Assembly (NCBI GenBank): GCA_038210625.1
Contig: JBBQWL010000041.1
Location: 1,584-65,583 of the forward strand
Source of the DNA: Chitinophagales bacterium
GTDB taxonomy: Bacteria; Bacteroidota; Bacteroidia; Chitinophagales; Chitinophagaceae
DNA: 64,000 nt
Direction: 5' to 3'
The notes beneath the pieces are model-generated. The model worked only from the letters and a program-made list of their open reading frames with translations. It did not search any database and was not told the origin of the DNA. This document shows, piece by piece, positions 1,674 through 21,998 of the stretch. The position numbers and the translations under genes were made by a program. The stretch's first letter is position 1; each line of letters opens with the position of its first letter.

Positions 1674-1937
1674 TATTAGTTGTTTTGGTTAATTCAAAGT
1701 TCCGTATAATATGATAAAAGATGAAATTATATTTCACCGGGCGGTAAAAAGATAACTTTATGTTTGCAGGCATAAAAATCTAAATATTATTTTTATTTTA
1801 CTTCTAATCTTCTCAAATAAATATGGAACAATAAAATACTTGTAATACCGGAGTAATTTCAAAAATAGCCCTGTTTTAATAAGGATATTTTTGAAGACTT
1901 AATTTTGAATATTAAAATAAGAAAAAGCAAATAATGT

Positions 1938-2471
1938 ATGGAAATAATTAACAGCACGGTAAGCGATATTGCAACCATATTTGAATTCTACGATCACGCC
2001 ATTGCGTATCAAAAAACTAAATTTAATAAACACTGGCAGGGGTTTGATTTACCGGTTATTGAAAAGGAGATAAAAGAAAACAGGCAATTCAAAATTGTAC
2101 AGGATGAAAAAGTGGTTTGCATATTTGCCATCACGTTTAATGATCCTGCCATTTGGGGCGAAAAGGATAAAGACAAAGCCATCTATATTCATAGAATTGT
2201 AACTCATCCCGCGTTTCATGGCAATAATTACGTAAAGCATATTGTGAAATGGGTGATTGATTACTGCGAAAAAAACGGGATTGATTATGTGAGAATGGAT
2301 ACCTGGGGCGATAACCAGAAACTGATTGACCACTACCAGGGTTGTGGTTTTACTTTTATGGGTATATCAGCCGAAATGAAGGATGTAACCCTGCCCAAAC
2401 ATTACGATTGTATTTCCCTAAGTTTATTTGAAATAGACATCAAAAAACAGCAGCATCATGGCAATGTATGA
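1938..2471 (+). CDS. GNAT family N-acetyltransferase
   Basis: YIHRIVTHPAFHGNN (motif A-like) and VRMDTWGDNQKLIDHYQGCGF (motif B-like). Confidence 0.8.
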   Translation: MEIINSTVSDIATIFEFYDHAIAYQKTKFNKHWQGFDLPVIEKEIKENRQFKIVQDEKVVCIFAITFNDPAIWGEKDKDKAIYIHRIVTHPAFHGNNYVKHIVKWVIDYCEKNGIDYVRMDTWGDNQKLIDHYQGCGFTFMGISAEMKDVTLPKHYDCISLSLFEIDIKKQQHHGNV

Positions 2472-3234
2472 TAATGAGAATACGGTTGTAAAGTCTTTCG
2501 ATCTTACTTATGTTTCTGAGCATTTGCAGCAGGCACAATGGGCCGAATTTATTGAACTTAAGAAAGTAGTAACAGTATTGTACAAACGGCAGGGCAGGCC
2601 GGTTTCAATATTAGATATTGGAATTGGCAATGCACGTATTCCTAAACATTTAAGCGGGGTAAAAGAAATTTGGGATATGGTTGCCACGTACGATGGAACA
2701 GATAATGCGCAAGCCTGTGTAGACATTGCATCAAAAAATATTGCTGATTTAAATATTGCCGATAAGGTACACGCTTATTTTTTTGATGGAGCCAAACTGG
2801 ATGAATGGACAAAGAAATATGATTTGGTAATTACCACCTGGTTTACCGCAGGCAATTTTTATCCAGACGATTTTTCTTTTGAAACATACCAGTCTACTGG
2901 CAAAAGACTGGATCTTTCTACGAATGAGAAATTTACAACAATCTTTAAAAACGCATACGGGCTTTTAAATGAAGGCGGAGCATTGTTGATAGGCGCCTGT
3001 TATATTGATAATGCAAGCACCCGTTTAAAACAGGAAGAGTCCTACGCAAAGATGGGAATGACCGTTATTACCAGCGCAGCAGATAGTTTTACCGCCACCA
3101 GGGAGGGTTTCTGGAGCCAGCGTTTCACCAAAGAAAAACTGAAGCAATATCTTTATTTTGTATCGCCAGAAAAAATACAGTTCACTCCGTTGGATACGTA
3201 TGATTATGCCATGCAGGTCTCCATCAGTAAATAA
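2458..3234 (+). CDS. Class I SAM-dependent methyltransferase
   Basis: Motif I SILDIGIGNARI, acidic residue after beta-2 (YDGTD), YDLVITTW; overlaps the GNAT stop. Confidence 0.75.
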   Translation: MAMYDNENTVVKSFDLTYVSEHLQQAQWAEFIELKKVVTVLYKRQGRPVSILDIGIGNARIPKHLSGVKEIWDMVATYDGTDNAQACVDIASKNIADLNIADKVHAYFFDGAKLDEWTKKYDLVITTWFTAGNFYPDDFSFETYQSTGKRLDLSTNEKFTTIFKNAYGLLNEGGALLIGACYIDNASTRLKQEESYAKMGMTVITSAADSFTATREGFWSQRFTKEKLKQYLYFVSPEKIQFTPLDTYDYAMQVSISK

Positions 3235-10833: not shown

Positions 10834-10861
10834 GACAATAAGCAATAGTAAATAGGCAATA
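10834..10861 (+). repeat. Left heptamer arm (GACAATA AGCAATA GTAAATA GGCAATA) of the four-helix-bundle cassette
   Basis: Four 7-nt units ending AATA, abutting the ATG at 10862; inverted partner at 11221-11248. Confidence 0.9.
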
Positions 10862-11218
10862 ATGCTCAATCTGAATCATAAAAAGCTTAAGGCCTGGCAA
10901 CTTGCTATTCAGCTGTATAAAGAAGTATTATTGCTTGTAAGGAAATTACCTAAAGAAGAAATTTTCAATTTAACCTCACAAATAAAAAGAGCGGCGCTTT
11001 CTGTAAGTAATAATATTGCGGAAGGTGCAGCAAGAAAATCGTCTGCAGAAAGAAAAAGATTTTATGAAGTAGCACGTTCTTCAGACGTAGAAGTAGATAA
11101 TTGTTTTGAAGTAATTCTTACTGTTGAATATTTAAGCAAAGAGGATATACTAATAGCAGAAAACCTTGTGGAACAAATTTTCAAACTACTGTCAGCAATG
11201 ATTGATAACACGAAATGA
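10862..11218 (+). CDS. Four helix bundle protein (23S rRNA intervening-sequence protein / bAvd-like family)
   Basis: LKAWQLAIQLYKEV...LPKEEIFNLTSQIKRAALSVSNNIAEGAARKS..ERKRFYEVARSS..EV signature. Confidence 0.92.
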   Translation: MLNLNHKKLKAWQLAIQLYKEVLLLVRKLPKEEIFNLTSQIKRAALSVSNNIAEGAARKSSAERKRFYEVARSSDVEVDNCFEVILTVEYLSKEDILIAENLVEQIFKLLSAMIDNTK

Positions 11219-11220
11219 AT

Positions 11221-11248
11221 TATTGCTTATTTACTATTCCCTATTGCC
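11221..11248 (-). repeat. Right heptamer arm (TATTGCT TATTTAC TATTCCC TATTGCC)
   Basis: Matches the reverse complement of 10834-10861 at 24/28 positions; starts 2 nt after the TGA stop. Confidence 0.9.
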
Positions 11249-12616: not shown

Positions 12617-13543
12617 ATGGAATTACTAAAAGATTTCTGGTGGTTGATACCCATTTTTATGCTGATTGCAGGCGGACTATTTACCATCAACCAGGGAACC
12701 ATCGGGGTGGTTACCCGCCTGGGCAAATACCATAGCATCAAAAGACCAGGCTTAAATTTTAAAGTGCCTTTTTTAGACCAGCTGTACAAAAGGGTCAGCA
12801 TTCAAAACCGTTCGGTAGAACTGGAGTTCCAGGCCGTAACGATTGACCAGGCCAATGTGTATTTCAAATCGATGCTGTTGTATTCAGTATTAAATATTGA
12901 TGAAGACACCATTAAGAATGTGGCCTTTAAATTTATCAGTGAAAAAGATTTAATGCAGGCACTGATACGGACAGTAGAAGGAAGTATCCGTGCATTCGTA
13001 TCTACTAAAAAACAGGCGGAGGTATTGAACGTGCGCAGGGATATTGTAGAAAATGTAAAGGAGCAGGTAGACGTACAGCTCGAAAGCTGGGGCTATCATT
13101 TGCAGGATCTGCAGATCAACGACATTACTTTTGATGAAGCCATTATTACCAGTATGAGCAAAGTGGTGGCCAGTAATAACCTGAAAGCAGCGGCTGAAAA
13201 TGAAGGCCAGGCTTTGCTGATCACCAAAACAAAAGCGGCGGAAGCGGAAGGTAACGCCATTAAAATAGCAGCAGAGGCAGAAAGACAAGCAGCACAGTTA
13301 CGCGGACAGGGTGTGGCATTGTTCCGGGAAGAAGTGGCCAAGGGTATGAGCCAGGCTGCAGAACAAATGAAACAAGCCAACCTGGATACAAATGTAATTT
13401 TATTTAGTATGTGGACAGAAGCGATTAAAAATTTTGCAGAATATGGAAAAGGCAATGTGATATTTTTGGATGGCAGCAGTGAGGGCATGGAAAAAACCAT
13501 GCGTCAGATAATGGCCATGCAGCAGATGGATGGAAAGAAATGA
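12617..13543 (+). CDS. SPFH/band 7/prohibitin domain protein
   Basis: N-terminal TM, RLGKYHSIKRPGLNFKVPF, coiled AEA/AAE-rich C-terminal region. Confidence 0.9.
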   Translation: MELLKDFWWLIPIFMLIAGGLFTINQGTIGVVTRLGKYHSIKRPGLNFKVPFLDQLYKRVSIQNRSVELEFQAVTIDQANVYFKSMLLYSVLNIDEDTIKNVAFKFISEKDLMQALIRTVEGSIRAFVSTKKQAEVLNVRRDIVENVKEQVDVQLESWGYHLQDLQINDITFDEAIITSMSKVVASNNLKAAAENEGQALLITKTKAAEAEGNAIKIAAEAERQAAQLRGQGVALFREEVAKGMSQAAEQMKQANLDTNVILFSMWTEAIKNFAEYGKGNVIFLDGSSEGMEKTMRQIMAMQQMDGKK

Positions 13544-13569
13544 TTGCAGCAATAAATATTTTATATCGG

Positions 13570-13589
13570 GAGCCGGATTTATCCGGCTC
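13570..13589 (+). terminator. Probable intrinsic terminator after SPFH gene
   Basis: GAGCCGGAT-TT-ATCCGGCTC hairpin followed by T-rich tract. Confidence 0.6.
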
Positions 13590-13729
13590 TTGTTGTAAGT
13601 TTACTTTAACATTTTTTTGTAGTGCAATTGATGTTTGTTTGCGTTACAAAGAGCAGTCAAAACCTATTGGCATAATTATCGTAAAATAAAAAGTCATAAA
13701 CAATTACTTTTGCCCAAAATCAGTTAAAC

Positions 13730-14410
13730 ATGTTTGATATTCTTTTACAGGTAGATACTACTAAAGTGGCCACAGAGCTGTTGTCACAAAAGTCAGAAAA
13801 TGTTTGGGGCGTACTGGCCAAAGGAGGCTTGCTGATGATCCCTTTATTGGCGTTGTTAGTAGTAGCTATTTTCTTTTTTATTGAAAGGTTACTTACTATT
13901 ACCAAAGCGGCTAAAATCGAAGATAATTTTATGAGCATTATCCGGGATAATATTGTTTCCGGTAATGTAACCGCCGCCAGGAACCTTGCCAAAAATACCA
14001 ATAACCCGGTTGCCAGGGTAATTGATAAAGGCATGCAACGCATTGGTAAACCTATTGATGCCATCGAAAAAAGTATGGATAATGTAGGGGTACTGGAAAT
14101 GTATAAACTGGAGAAAAATTTATCCATCATTTCTATCATCGCACGCATTGCGCCGTTGTTTGGATTTTTAGGAACCATCATTGGTATGCTGGCGCTTTTC
14201 AAAGGCATTGCAGCCACATCGGAGTATACGCCCAACACTATTGCAGATGGTATTTATATCAAAATGATTACTTCTGCTACCGGTTTAATTATTGGTATCC
14301 TGGCTTATCTTGGTCATAGTTTTTTACAGGCGCAAATTGCGAGGATAGAAAATAAAATTGATGCGGCAAGCGCTGAGTTTGTAGATATTTTGCAGGAACC
14401 AACAAGATAG
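13730..14410 (+). CDS. exbB: MotA/TolQ/ExbB proton channel family protein
   Basis: IAPLFGFLGTIIGM, ADGIYIKMITSATGLIIGI; paired with ExbD; TACTTTTG box at 13705-13712. Confidence 0.9.
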   Translation: MFDILLQVDTTKVATELLSQKSENVWGVLAKGGLLMIPLLALLVVAIFFFIERLLTITKAAKIEDNFMSIIRDNIVSGNVTAARNLAKNTNNPVARVIDKGMQRIGKPIDAIEKSMDNVGVLEMYKLEKNLSIISIIARIAPLFGFLGTIIGMLALFKGIAATSEYTPNTIADGIYIKMITSATGLIIGILAYLGHSFLQAQIARIENKIDAASAEFVDILQEPTR

Positions 14411-14413
14411 AGA

Positions 14414-14520
14414 TGTCAATGGTGAATAGGCAATGGTGAAAACTTTGAAGGTCACTATTCAATATTTACCACGACAATTTGCTACAGACAATTCACAATT
14501 GACCATTCACAATTCACCAT
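14414..14520. repeat. Inverted heptamer arms without a cargo gene, between exbB and exbD
   Basis: Left TGTCAAT GGTGAAT AGGCAAT GGTGAAA (14414-14441); right ATTCACA ATTGACC ATTCACA ATTCACC (14491-14518); ~49-nt spacer. Confidence 0.8.
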
Positions 14521-14526
14521 ATAAGT

Positions 14527-14928
14527 ATGAGCTTAAGAAAAAAATTTAAAGGAGAAGGCGCCGAAGTAGATACCGGGCCTTTGAACGATATTTTATTTAT
14601 CCTGATGTTCTTCTTTTTAATCATTTCTACATTGGCCAATCCCAATGTAATAAAGCTGAGCAACCCCAAGGCAAAAAGTGATACAAAGGCCAAGCAAAGC
14701 GTGATAGTAAGTATTGATAAGAACCGTGTGGTGCACGTAGGCCAGCAAAAAATAATTTTTGATTCGCTGGAGTCGCAACTAAGATTACATATTCATGTTG
14801 GTGATAGCATTAAACCAGCAGTAGTAATCAATGCAGATTCTTTGGTAGCCTGGAAAGACATTGTAAAAATAATGAGTGTGGCTAAAAGGTTGGGTGCTAC
14901 TACCTCGGCATCAGTTTCCAATCAGTAA
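14527..14928 (+). CDS. exbD: Biopolymer transporter ExbD
   Basis: GPLNDILFILMFFFLI transmembrane motif, VVINADS, IVKIMS. Confidence 0.9.
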   Translation: MSLRKKFKGEGAEVDTGPLNDILFILMFFFLIISTLANPNVIKLSNPKAKSDTKAKQSVIVSIDKNRVVHVGQQKIIFDSLESQLRLHIHVGDSIKPAVVINADSLVAWKDIVKIMSVAKRLGATTSASVSNQ

Positions 14929-14951
14929 TTTATTTTGCCGTTAAGGCGTTG

Positions 14952-14982
14952 AGGCGTTTGTTTTTATTTAAAACAAACGCCT
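14952..14982. terminator. Bidirectional terminator-like hairpin between exbD and prmC
   Basis: AGGCGTTTGTTTT / AAAACAAACGCCT stem between convergent genes. Confidence 0.6.
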
Positions 14983-15054
14983 TCTGTATAAATGGATCAA
15001 CTCTAAATCTTTGAGTCCGGTAGAGCATCGGCTACCATCTTCCAATAATACCGG

Positions 15055-15909
15055 CTAAATAAAAGAAGCAGTTACCATTCTCTCCTTTCCAAAAAGATCT
15101 TTTTTAATGGATACCGTTTTGTAATTATTAGTAAACAGGGCAGCAGTTTCTTTTGCAAAGTCCTCATGGGTTTCCATAAAAATGGCACCTTTTAAATTGA
15201 GGTGCGTTTTACCAAAAGCAGCTATTTTTTCATAGAATAACAAAGGTGAATTGTCGGGCACAAATAAAGCCTGGTGTGGCTCAAAGGTAGTTACATTGAT
15301 ATCCAGTTTTTCCTTTTCGTTTAATGGAATGTAAGGTGGATTACTAATGATACAATCAAACTTTGGTAAATTGTTCCATTGCTTTTCGTCTAAAAAATCG
15401 ACTACCAAAAAATCAATTAAAGTTTGTTGTCTTGCTGCATTTTCTTCAGCGACTTTTAACGCATCACTACTTATATCTATTGCCGTAACAGTTGCTTCAG
15501 GCATATTCTTTTTTATAGCAATGGCTATGCAGCCACTGCCGGTACCAATGTCTAAAATGGATGGGCTGGTATTGGTAATTATTGCCTGATCCAACACCAG
15601 TTGAACCAGTTCTTCTGTCTCAGGCCGTGGAATTAAAACATGTTCATTGACTCTTAACTTCATTTTGTAAAACCAGGCTTCGCCTAAAACGTATTGAACG
15701 GGCGTGTGCTGTAGTAAAGCAGTCAAGGCTTTATTTAATTGCTCAATAACGGTAATTGATAAAAGCAGTCTGGGGTTTTTTATTACCTCAAAACGTTCAA
15801 TGCCGGCAAGGCTTTCAAACACCCAGTCTGTAATTACCGTGGCTTCATTAAGGCTGAAAATTGTTTGTAATTGTTGCAGAAAATTACGGTATTGTTGATT
15901 GATTGTCAT
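15055..15909 (-). CDS. prmC: Release factor glutamine methyltransferase (HemK)
   Basis: PVQYVLGEAWF, VLIPRPETEELV, LDIGTGSGCIA, SNPPYI; start MTINQQ chosen because the upstream ATG (15921) overlaps a TATGTTTG -7 box. Confidence 0.93.
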   Translation of the reverse strand: MTINQQYRNFLQQLQTIFSLNEATVITDWVFESLAGIERFEVIKNPRLLLSITVIEQLNKALTALLQHTPVQYVLGEAWFYKMKLRVNEHVLIPRPETEELVQLVLDQAIITNTSPSILDIGTGSGCIAIAIKKNMPEATVTAIDISSDALKVAEENAARQQTLIDFLVVDFLDEKQWNNLPKFDCIISNPPYIPLNEKEKLDINVTTFEPHQALFVPDNSPLLFYEKIAAFGKTHLNLKGAIFMETHEDFAKETAALFTNNYKTVSIKKDLFGKERMVTASFI

Positions 15910-21698: not shown

Positions 21699-21998
21699 GG
21701 ATGGAACGCTGATGACACGGATGCAACGGATTTGGACTGATTTTAAATCCGTTTTTAATCCGCCTTATCAGCGTTAACCGTGTGCTATCCTTCCCACCAC
21801 CTGATGGGAACACGGATGACACGGATGTAACGGATTTGCACTGATTTTAAATCCGTTTTTAATCCGTCTTATCAGCGTTATCCGTGTGCTATCCTTCCCA
21901 CCACCTGTTGGGAACACGGATGACACGGATGTAACGGATTTGCACTGATTTTAAATCCGTTTTTAATCCGCAAAATCAGCGTCATCCGTGTTCCATCC
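21699..21998. repeat. Tandem array, 104-bp period, ~2.9 copies, each unit an imperfect hairpin with 9-mer-periodic arms
   Basis: GGAAC unit starts at 21703, 21807, 21911; outer ends GGATGGAAC / GTTCCATCC inverted. Confidence 0.92.

Follow-up and report, generated by a model that had tools for sequence, protein, structure and literature searches.

A gene-less, heptamer-armed hairpin module between exbB and exbD in Ferruginibacter (Chitinophagaceae), with a proposed role as intercistronic stem-loop or binding platform

What are the inverted heptamer arrays that fill the spacer between exbB and exbD in this genome? The stretch of DNA analysed here (the window, 64,000 nucleotides) corresponds to C41:1584-65583 in a draft genome of 6.5 Mb and 40.5% GC, whose contigs carry C-numbers. 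It also contains a gene of the four-helix-bundle family (FHB, PF05635) between arms of a similar kind, and the original prediction had taken the two for a filled and an empty copy of the same element, only 3.5 kb apart. We regard the spacer element instead as a gene-less, heptamer-armed hairpin module of Ferruginibacter (Chitinophagaceae) that would act as an intercistronic stem-loop or binding platform, a reading that, taken as a whole, we consider moderately probable. Its two parts differ in strength. The identity and the history of the element, meaning a gene-less heptamer hairpin, its family membership, the genome-level link to PF05635, the exchange of alleles, and the constraint on the arms, are very well supported by the observations given below. 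The function as a stem-loop in the transcript or as a periodic binding platform is plausible but tentative. The features on which the description is based are the following:

10834-11248, plus strand: filled cassette, with a PF05635 gene at 10862-11218 (8.5e-29) between inverted AAGCAAT/AGTAAAT/AGGCAAT arms
13730-14410, plus strand: exbB, MotA/TolQ/ExbB proton-channel subunit (PF01618, 2.3e-23)
14414-14441, plus strand: left arm, purine-rich, four heptamers of the nGnnAAT family (TGTCAAT GGTGAAT AGGCAAT GGTGAAA)
14442-14490, plus strand: loop, 49 nt, single copy in the genome
14491-14518, plus strand: right arm, pyrimidine-rich (ATTCACA ATTGACC ATTCACA ATTCACC), complementary to the left arm in inverted orientation at 21/28 positions
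14527-14928, plus strand: exbD, the downstream cistron (PF02472, 5.3e-21)

The spacer comprises positions 14411-14526 (116 nt). It opens with AGA, directly followed by the left arm, and is filled by 4+4 inverted heptamers around the 49-nt loop. The right arm is followed by ATATAAGT and the ATG of exbD at 14527, the start codon being located 8 nt past the arm. An inverted-repeat search delimited arms of 26 nt at 14415-14440 and 14492-14517 with 81% complementarity. When the spacer was shuffled 2000 times with its dinucleotides preserved, none of the shuffles reached the corresponding score of 13.5 (mean 6.9, maximum 13.0), which is attained by 27 of the 576 co-directional spacers of 90-150 nt in the same genome. 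The arms, inverted at about 21/28 around some 49 nt, were thus correctly described in the original prediction. The same is true for the position of the element between co-oriented operon genes, both on the plus strand, and for the decayed heptamers between the arms, which can be read directly from the sequence as ATTNNNN units from about 14455 on. No second copy of the 49-nt loop was found in the genome with blastn-short. The spacer alone is predicted to fold into a moderately stable RNA structure (-24.1 kcal/mol, z = -1.43), and a search of 14300-14650 against the known RNA families of Rfam did not result in any hit near threshold (best 19 bits, compared with a gathering score of 90). On the plus strand of 13500-15100 no terminator-like sites were found, and the element differs from an intrinsic terminator, which would consist of a GC-rich stem followed by a U tract. 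The spacer does not contain a promoter-like site either, and by eye no good Bacteroidetes-type TTTG/TAnnTTTG promoter pair is present in the loop. Because neither promoter nor terminator was found in the spacer, the module would be part of an exbB-exbD transcript. Two small minus-strand ORFs across the spacer (14289-14462 and 14324-14455) were rejected as unsupported antisense overlaps with exbB.

Heptamer arrays are abundant in this genome. With a strict threshold, 146 tandem arrays of period 7 were found compared with 3-20 for each of the periods 5, 6, and 8-11, and a looser threshold resulted, after merging, in 221 period-7 arrays. According to a crude ORF call, 87% of the arrays are intergenic, while only about 13% of the genome is. 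Most intergenic arrays (77%) are located in co-directional spacers, and 7% in divergent ones, which account for 23% of the intergenic length. That arrays are rare in divergent, promoter-only spacers argues for transcribed positions. Solo arrays are mostly purine-rich on the sense strand (50 purine-rich versus 13 pyrimidine-rich), and the inverted partner of a pyrimidine-rich array is always found 5' of it, so that pairs run from purine to pyrimidine. For about 35 of 192 arrays an inverted partner was found no more than 250 nt away, compared with 9 in a complement-only control, and the genome contains approximately 25 gene-less inverted pairs, or hairpin spacers, to which the exbB-exbD element belongs. 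In the genome-wide count with a profile of the arm, which had been suggested together with the original prediction, three consecutive nGnnAAT units match 37 loci, versus 0-11 for permuted controls.

These arrays are linked to the four-helix-bundle genes. The genome encodes eight PF05635 genes, and all of them, each inspected, are located between inverted heptamer arrays. The eight genes have eight different heptamer families in their arms, namely AGGCAAT/AGTAAAT, GTAGCAG, AGTCAAT/GGTCCAT, GGTAAGT/GTTATAA, CTGGATA/ACTTGAT, GCTTAAG, AATTAAT, and GGCTGAT/GTCTGAT, and the main families of the gene-less arrays are those of the FHB arms. Of the 7-mers of gene-less arrays 37% are also found in FHB arms, compared with 20% for the arrays of relatives and a random expectation of about 5% (P = 1e-8). 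The left arm of the exbB-exbD element has AGGCAAT-type 7-mers in common with the C41 cassette, and its right arm shares ATTGACC with a cassette on C35. For a comparison across genomes, 37-200 kb were sampled from each of 18 related genomes and analysed together with the genome of the window (n = 19). The number of FHB genes per Mb correlates with the number of period-7 arrays per 100 kb (Spearman 0.73, P = 4e-4, kinship ignored), and this correlation persists when genome size is accounted for (partial r = 0.57, P = 0.011, kinship likewise ignored). The six genomes without FHB gene have on average 0.4 arrays per 100 kb, the remaining genomes 6.0. Within the genus alone the correlation is weak (rho 0.53, P = 0.09, n = 11), and there are exceptions in both directions: with five FHB genes, G034 has an array density of 0 per 100 kb, and G024 has five arrays in 61 kb with a single FHB gene. 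These data thus support a general connection between gene-less arms and FHB cassettes. The claim that the spacer element and the FHB cassette are the same element has therefore to be divided. Both are drawn from a common repeat population, as indicated by the framing of all eight FHB genes, the shared 7-mers, and the correlation across genomes, but they do not form a specific pair. We did not find literature linking heptamer repeats with a four-helix-bundle or IVS protein; the text of PMC4679880 contains neither 'four helix' nor 'intervening', and for PMC4692102 this statement refers to its abstract and outline.

The FHB protein of the neighbouring cassette has its nearest solved structure in 2gsc (XCC0516). 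If the spacer element were a cargo-loss scar or a non-autonomous copy of this cassette, either the FHB ORF would have been deleted from it or the arms would have been copied. The similarity on which the original prediction was based is real: an 18-mer of the element matches the cassette arm at 10843-10860 in 16 of 18 positions, and there are five non-self hits in the genome with at most two mismatches compared with 0.3 in shuffles. In addition, the architecture is common to both, each filling a spacer between co-oriented genes, and other loci do resemble emptied twins of the 10834-11248 cassette. However, the cassette is not the best hit of the 18-mer, which has only one mismatch at C31:51280 and at C38:14604, and the cassette arms have far closer gene-less counterparts elsewhere. 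The gene-less C38:3803-3839 agrees with the right cassette arm in 35 of 36 positions, junction included. The gene-less twin of the cassette arms at C35:80374-80514 is a complete hairpin with a loop of about 20 nt (-44.5 kcal/mol, z = -4.0), and C31:51269-51400 and C38:14604-14680 are good matches to the cassette arms, too. In local alignments with the cassette arms, the C38, C35, C31, and C38b loci score 22-34 and the exbB-exbD element 11-14. The arms of the latter fall within the GGTGAAT/GGTCAAT range of a continuous nGnnAAT family; at C31 both sub-vocabularies of this family are mixed in one arm. The supposed filled/empty pair thus dissolves, and the proximity of 3.5 kb has no demonstrated meaning. 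Furthermore, the loop is similar neither to the FHB gene nor to anything else in the genome, and, as detailed below, the allele is an old one whose number of units, 4+4, does not change. Strains with a four-helix-bundle gene in the spacer had been anticipated, but there were none among the 27 species-level relatives and about 35 strain-level contigs (approximately 60 related genomes or contigs with ExbB identities of 42-100%). A derivation of the element from this cassette, by loss of cargo or by copying, is therefore very improbable.

In the 27 species-level relatives, whose ExbB proteins are 42-75% identical, the exbB-exbD spacers have lengths of 0-164 nt. Short spacers without arms do occur, as had been expected: the closest species-level relative, G014, has a spacer of 23 nt without arms, and others have 2-27 nt. 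Because many relatives do without any hairpin at this position (0-27 nt), the hairpin module must be dispensable. Several other relatives have different periodic repeats in the same slot, such as TATGAGT or TTCGTCA heptamers, GTTAATC units, or units of the ACGAATTAC type.

At the strain level the spacer is found in alternative forms. Four contigs (L161, L162, L164, and L168) have the same 116-nt spacer as the window. L163 does not show any difference to the window over 1.3 kb upstream and agrees with it in 159 of 160 positions of exbD, yet has an unrelated spacer of 136 nt. Strains with 99-100% identical flanks can thus carry a different hairpin between exbB and exbD. The alternative hairpin of the L163 type is also present in L165 and L166, whose exbB genes are 96% and 93% identical, the allele being 136 or 142 nt long. 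Its arms repeat with a period of about 9-10 nt (CACGGATT..AACGGATT..ACACTGATT / AATTCGTGTAATTCG..AATTAGTG), and both hairpin alleles have similar stabilities, with -23 to -25 kcal/mol for the alternative and -22 kcal/mol for the heptamer allele. Arms of the same ACGGATT type and period also flank PDDEXK_3 genes at C1:93363 and C57:34925. Two further features of the window belong to this comparison:

14365-14559: minimal tract in which the window and L163 differ, the rest being identical (12973-14364, and downstream to the end of the L163 contig)
21699-21998: tandem hairpins with ACGGATT-type arms of about 9-10-nt period, the repeat family of the exbB-exbD spacer of the sister strains

The tract at 14365-14559 comprises four linked SNPs near the 3' end of exbB, the entire spacer, and one SNP in exbD. 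The exbB SNPs are within the last 50 nt of the gene, whose last two codons are AGA TAG with the heptamer allele and CGT TAA with the alternative (a synonymous change), and the last approximately 40 nt of the exbB gene of the window are common to the heptamer-allele group. The homologous heptamer allele, loop included, is present in L176-L179 (exbB 92% identical) and in L180-L181 (88.5%). The loop of the window is most similar to that of L180 (44 of 46 positions), although the exbB genes are only 88.5% identical. A recent de novo insertion that displaced the other hairpin was also considered and was rejected because the homologous allele exists in lineages with 88-92% exbB identity. Heptamer hairpins that are related but have different loops are found in L188 and L204-206, the 9-10-periodic allele is also present in L182-187, L189-193, and L195-196, and L194 and L200 have neither of the hairpin alleles. 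Given the linked SNPs and the scattering of both alleles over the lineages, we conclude from these sequence comparisons that the heptamer hairpin is most likely an old spacer allele, shuffled between strains by homologous recombination via exbB and exbD and not by transposition.

A REPIN/REP- or MITE-like element mobilised in trans by a transposase, for example of the RAYT-type Y1 family, would to some extent look alike. REP, BIME, and REPIN-RAYT systems are also short, imperfect palindromes dispersed over mostly co-directional intergenic spacers, as single copies and inverted doublets, and a small gene between inverted repeats resembles a RAYT flanked by REPs. In addition, lineage L200-L203 has a Y1_Tnp gene just downstream of exbD. 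However, only the periodic arms recur while the loop is unique, and therefore a conserved full-length unit or consensus does not exist; further full-length copies, as for a MITE, are absent. A target-site duplication is not evident. The boundary of the allele is inside the last codons of exbB and the allele spreads together with linked flanking SNPs, which is the pattern of homologous recombination, and the same observations speak against the non-autonomous mobile form of the original prediction. Moreover, the arrays are not associated with Y1 transposases. Across the 19 genomes the count of these RAYT-like genes does not correlate with array density (rho 0.26, P = 0.28); G013 does not contain any Y1 gene and has the densest arrays, and G003 has four Y1 genes and no arrays. 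The family that is associated with the arrays is a four-helix bundle without known transposase activity. Mobilisation by a transposase is thus hardly credible.

The homologous alleles allow comparing the evolution of the different parts of the module. Their arms are 94-97% identical, with 29-30 of 30 positions conserved in the left and 28-30 of 31 in the right arm, and the loops 78-81%, compared with 73-86% for the third codon positions of exbB. All homologous alleles (the window, the heptamer carriers among L161-L168, and L176-L181) have 4+4 units despite a third-position divergence of about 25-30%. Because the arms vary less than the loop and the third codon positions, they are constrained or homogenised, and the loop evolves approximately neutrally. 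Gene conversion instead of selection could account for the conservation of the arms. Within the nGnnAAT core, G2 and A5, A6, and T7 are invariant, and the variable positions change without compensation. In the covariation analysis, which comprised only six homologous sequences, a compensatory double change was seen in one of 25 predicted pairs, and this pair is internal to the loop. The few arm substitutions in these six sequences break pairs, and the covariation term is +1.84. If selection acted on pairing in the sense RNA, mismatches of the G·U type would be expected to prevail, but on the sense strand of 22 heptamer hairpins in co-directional spacers there are 17 G·U-type and 15 A·C-type mismatches, and in all 147 hairpins 52 and 47, respectively. 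As both types are similarly common, these counts do not indicate selection for pairing in the sense RNA over pairing at the DNA level or in antisense. A periodic motif (G2, A5-A6-T7) and stem pairing are equally compatible with the data.

It could be that the arrays do not have any function and are a by-product of polymerase slippage, which is tolerated behind genes in co-directional spacers, with gene conversion keeping the arms similar and the inversion without a role. Slippage as the origin of heptamer arrays was proposed by Mrazek et al. 2007, as far as it is related in PMC4679880. Neither the covariation analysis of the six homologous sequences nor the mismatches in the 22 hairpins lend support to pairing, the module is dispensable in many relatives, and different repeat families fill the exbB-exbD spacer in different lineages. 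In addition, heptamers are the commonest class of 5-11-nt repeats in many bacteria (PMC4679880). However, slippage-prone microsatellites would not be expected to keep 4+4 units over about 25% synonymous divergence, nor would arms free of constraint be expected to evolve several-fold slower than loop and synonymous sites. The strict purine-first polarity, the depletion from divergent spacers, the genome-level link with one particular protein family (PF05635), and the similar stability of the two alternative hairpin alleles are not readily explained by slippage either. Therefore, we consider a mere by-product unlikely.

Alternatively, the arms might be iteron-like protein-binding sites on double-stranded or extruded DNA, for which the FHB proteins would be candidates. 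Such an element would affect transcription or the local structure of the DNA, or would be a site of recombination or a landing site for cassettes, and would not act in RNA. The invariant G2 and A5 A6 T7 together with the uncompensated variable positions are motif-like rather than stem-like, the mismatch types are strand-symmetric, and the purine-first polarity is equal on both strands. The correlation between FHB count and array density would also fit, as would the spacer being a hot spot of modules that replace one another. However, at least eight unrelated heptamer families would require as many specificities. The arrays also avoid divergent, promoter-only spacers, which points to transcribed positions, and according to the abstract and outline of PMC4692102 most repeats of this kind are transcribed in the published Xanthomonas transcriptome. 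An action solely at the DNA level thus seems quite improbable.

Compared with known systems, the gene-less module is closest to the SSR/STRR-like heptamer repeats. Examples are the cyanobacterial STRRs, GGGAATC of Xanthomonas, and GGGGA(C/T)T of Nostoc (Rehm et al. 2015, PMC4692102, abstract and outline), and TAACTGA heptamers in Beggiatoaceae, Cyanobacteria, and Bacteroidetes (MacGregor 2015, PMC4679880). As outlined in PMC4692102, heptamer repeats are in excess in non-coding regions, are preferentially located between aligned ORFs, with a depletion in divergent spacers, have a G- or purine-rich sense strand after the stop codon, and prefer four units. The arrays described here agree in being head-to-tail 7-nt units, four per arm, in excess over other periods, and in being co-directional with the purine strand as the sense strand and few in divergent spacers (for the published side again as outlined in PMC4692102). 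They differ in four aspects: They form an inverted pair around a loop and thus a hairpin, the units are degenerate (nGnnAAT) and not a single word, the copy number is fixed at 4+4 across strains in place of a microsatellite-like variability, and their vocabulary is common to the arms of PF05635 cassettes, with the arrays tracking PF05635 across genomes.

As a gene-less state of an FHB cassette the module is characterised by inverted, purine-first heptamer arrays and a matching arm vocabulary, and genomes with arrays also carry PF05635; a filled form between exbB and exbD was not present in the 27 species-level and about 35 strain-level relatives. The setting that named PF05635 are the intervening sequences (IVSs) of 23S rRNA, which exist with and without ORF and are excised by RNase III. 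The similarities are considerable. In both cases the inverted flanks form a stem, inside which there is either a PF05635 ORF or no more than a short loop, so that filled and empty forms exist side by side. The RNA of the host runs through the element in both, and an RNase III gene is encoded in the genome of the window. However, the exbB-exbD element is located in the intercistronic spacer of a putative mRNA and not in helix 25 or 45 of the 23S rRNA, does not match any Rfam family, and has arms made of 7-nt repeats.

Within the same genus, the PDDEXK_3 (GxxExxY) hairpins provide a further parallel. They, too, have periodic arms in inverted orientation, between which a small gene may or may not be present, and they are found at the exbB-exbD position of sister strains and of further species of the genus. 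They differ in the period (about 9-10 instead of 7), in the vocabulary (ACGGATT/AATTCGT), and in the family of the cargo. Both kinds of periodic-arm hairpins might belong to a single class of interchangeable operon-spacer modules that is found throughout bacteria, the 7-nt kind going with PF05635 and the 9-10-nt kind with PDDEXK_3, and each protein family would have its own vocabulary, which it recognises, generates, or depends on. The gene-less hairpins would then not be decayed copies but working sites, at which polycistronic transcripts or DNA are bound or processed. This generalisation is speculative and rather doubtful at present.

For the gene-less hairpin module between exbB and exbD itself, the following mechanism can be envisaged. 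Inside the exbB-exbD transcript the module would be a stem-loop or a periodic platform to which four-helix-bundle proteins or RNase III may bind. It may uncouple the two cistrons by processing, by protecting the 3' end of exbB, or by altering the translation of exbD. The classic role proposed for REP elements is the stabilisation of mRNA between cistrons, and by analogy with REP elements and rRNA IVSs cleavage might happen within the stem and/or the exbB 3' end might be protected. ExbB and ExbD assemble in an unequal ratio (ExbB5:ExbD2). Cleavage or 3'-end protection would fit this unequal stoichiometry.

In many bacteria, heptamers outnumber every other class of 5-11-nt tandem repeats; they do not have an accepted function (PMC4679880, and PMC4692102 in abstract and outline). 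The exbB-exbD element is a member of this known repeat class in a little-described form, inverted and gene-less. With conserved arms, a drifting loop, and a fixed number of units, its arms are unlike ordinary microsatellites. In related genomes the density of the arrays follows the number of PF05635 genes and not that of Y1 transposases. If the reading as a class of modules is true, the heptamer excess of bacteria would be a footprint of PF05635. The most useful new fact is that 7-periodic and 9-10-periodic hairpins alternate in a single operon slot of near-identical strains. This alternation provides natural, isogenic-like pairs for probing the effect of a hairpin on a well-understood two-gene operon, and under the same reading the exbB-exbD slot would be a natural allele-swap experiment.

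The true gene-less twins of the filled cassette at window 10834-11248, in which inverted heptamer arms surround a four-helix-bundle (FHB, PF05635) gene, are found on two other contigs of the same genome (G000; its contigs carry C-numbers, and L-numbers denote contigs or loci of the comparison):

C35:80374-80514 (= L235:125-265), gene-less twin
C38:3712-3839 (= L236), gene-less twin

The C35 copy folds into a hairpin of -44.5 kcal/mol (z = -4.0), and its left arm terminates in AGGCAATAATG, the same sequence from which the filled cassette takes its FHB start codon. The C38 copy combines three arrays, the last of which matches the right arm of the cassette at 35/36 positions. Inverted heptamer arrays also enclose two other segments in this genome:

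C16:89553-89997 (L233), arrays around a 321-nt segment
C76:464-1534 (L234), arrays around a segment of about 1 kb

Neither segment contains a convincing ORF, and neither matches any Rfam family at E <= 0.01. Both share a repeated motif, whose translation in one frame reads ..KK.K.ARL/ARPG.., and the two segments may represent a third cargo type. At C18:52041-53575 and C45:2947-4095, inverted arrays of a single heptamer family, GTTATAA, bracket genes of the ordinary housekeeping type, which encode a CysN-like GTPase and a HypE/SelD-like protein. Polarity is purine-first in one case and the opposite in the other.

In the strain-level relatives L163, L165, and L166 the exbB-exbD spacer holds an alternative allele, a hairpin of ACGGATT/AATTCGT arms with a period of about 9-10 nt, whose left and right arms pair via a sense-strand G·U wobble. 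The same arm type builds the tandem hairpins at window 21699-21998 and flanks PDDEXK_3 (PF13366) genes in G000. Loci of the allele and of the arm type:

L165:1365-1500, example of the alternative-allele spacer
C1:93363-93707, PDDEXK_3 gene locus with arms of this type
C57:34925-35212, PDDEXK_3 gene locus with arms of this type

In the lineage L200-L203, with 79% exbB nucleotide identity, the exbB-exbD spacer is 42 nt long and lacks arms. A Y1_Tnp (PF01797) gene lies directly past exbD on the opposite strand, at a distance of about 130 nt but 310 nt in L201. In L192 (ERZ28573550 scaffold_1208, 1882-3044) no exbD was called, yet the exbD start (ATGAGCTTAAGAAAA...) opens the sequence past the spacer; an artefact of gene calling or assembly probably explains the absent call.

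Two heptamer tracts in G000 are unusually long, far above the usual four to eight units, namely C46:5596-5888 (about 290 nt of GGTGAAT/GTGAGT and ATCAAGY units) and C8:148896-149120 (225 nt of GCCTTCN units). Period-8 arrays are raised in the related genomes G013 and G014 (sampled as L081-L090 and L101-L110), with 9 and 11 per 200 kb compared to 0-2 elsewhere, and FHB density correlates weakly with the control periods 6 and 8 (rho 0.49). Therefore, the repeat system is not strictly 7-periodic in every lineage.
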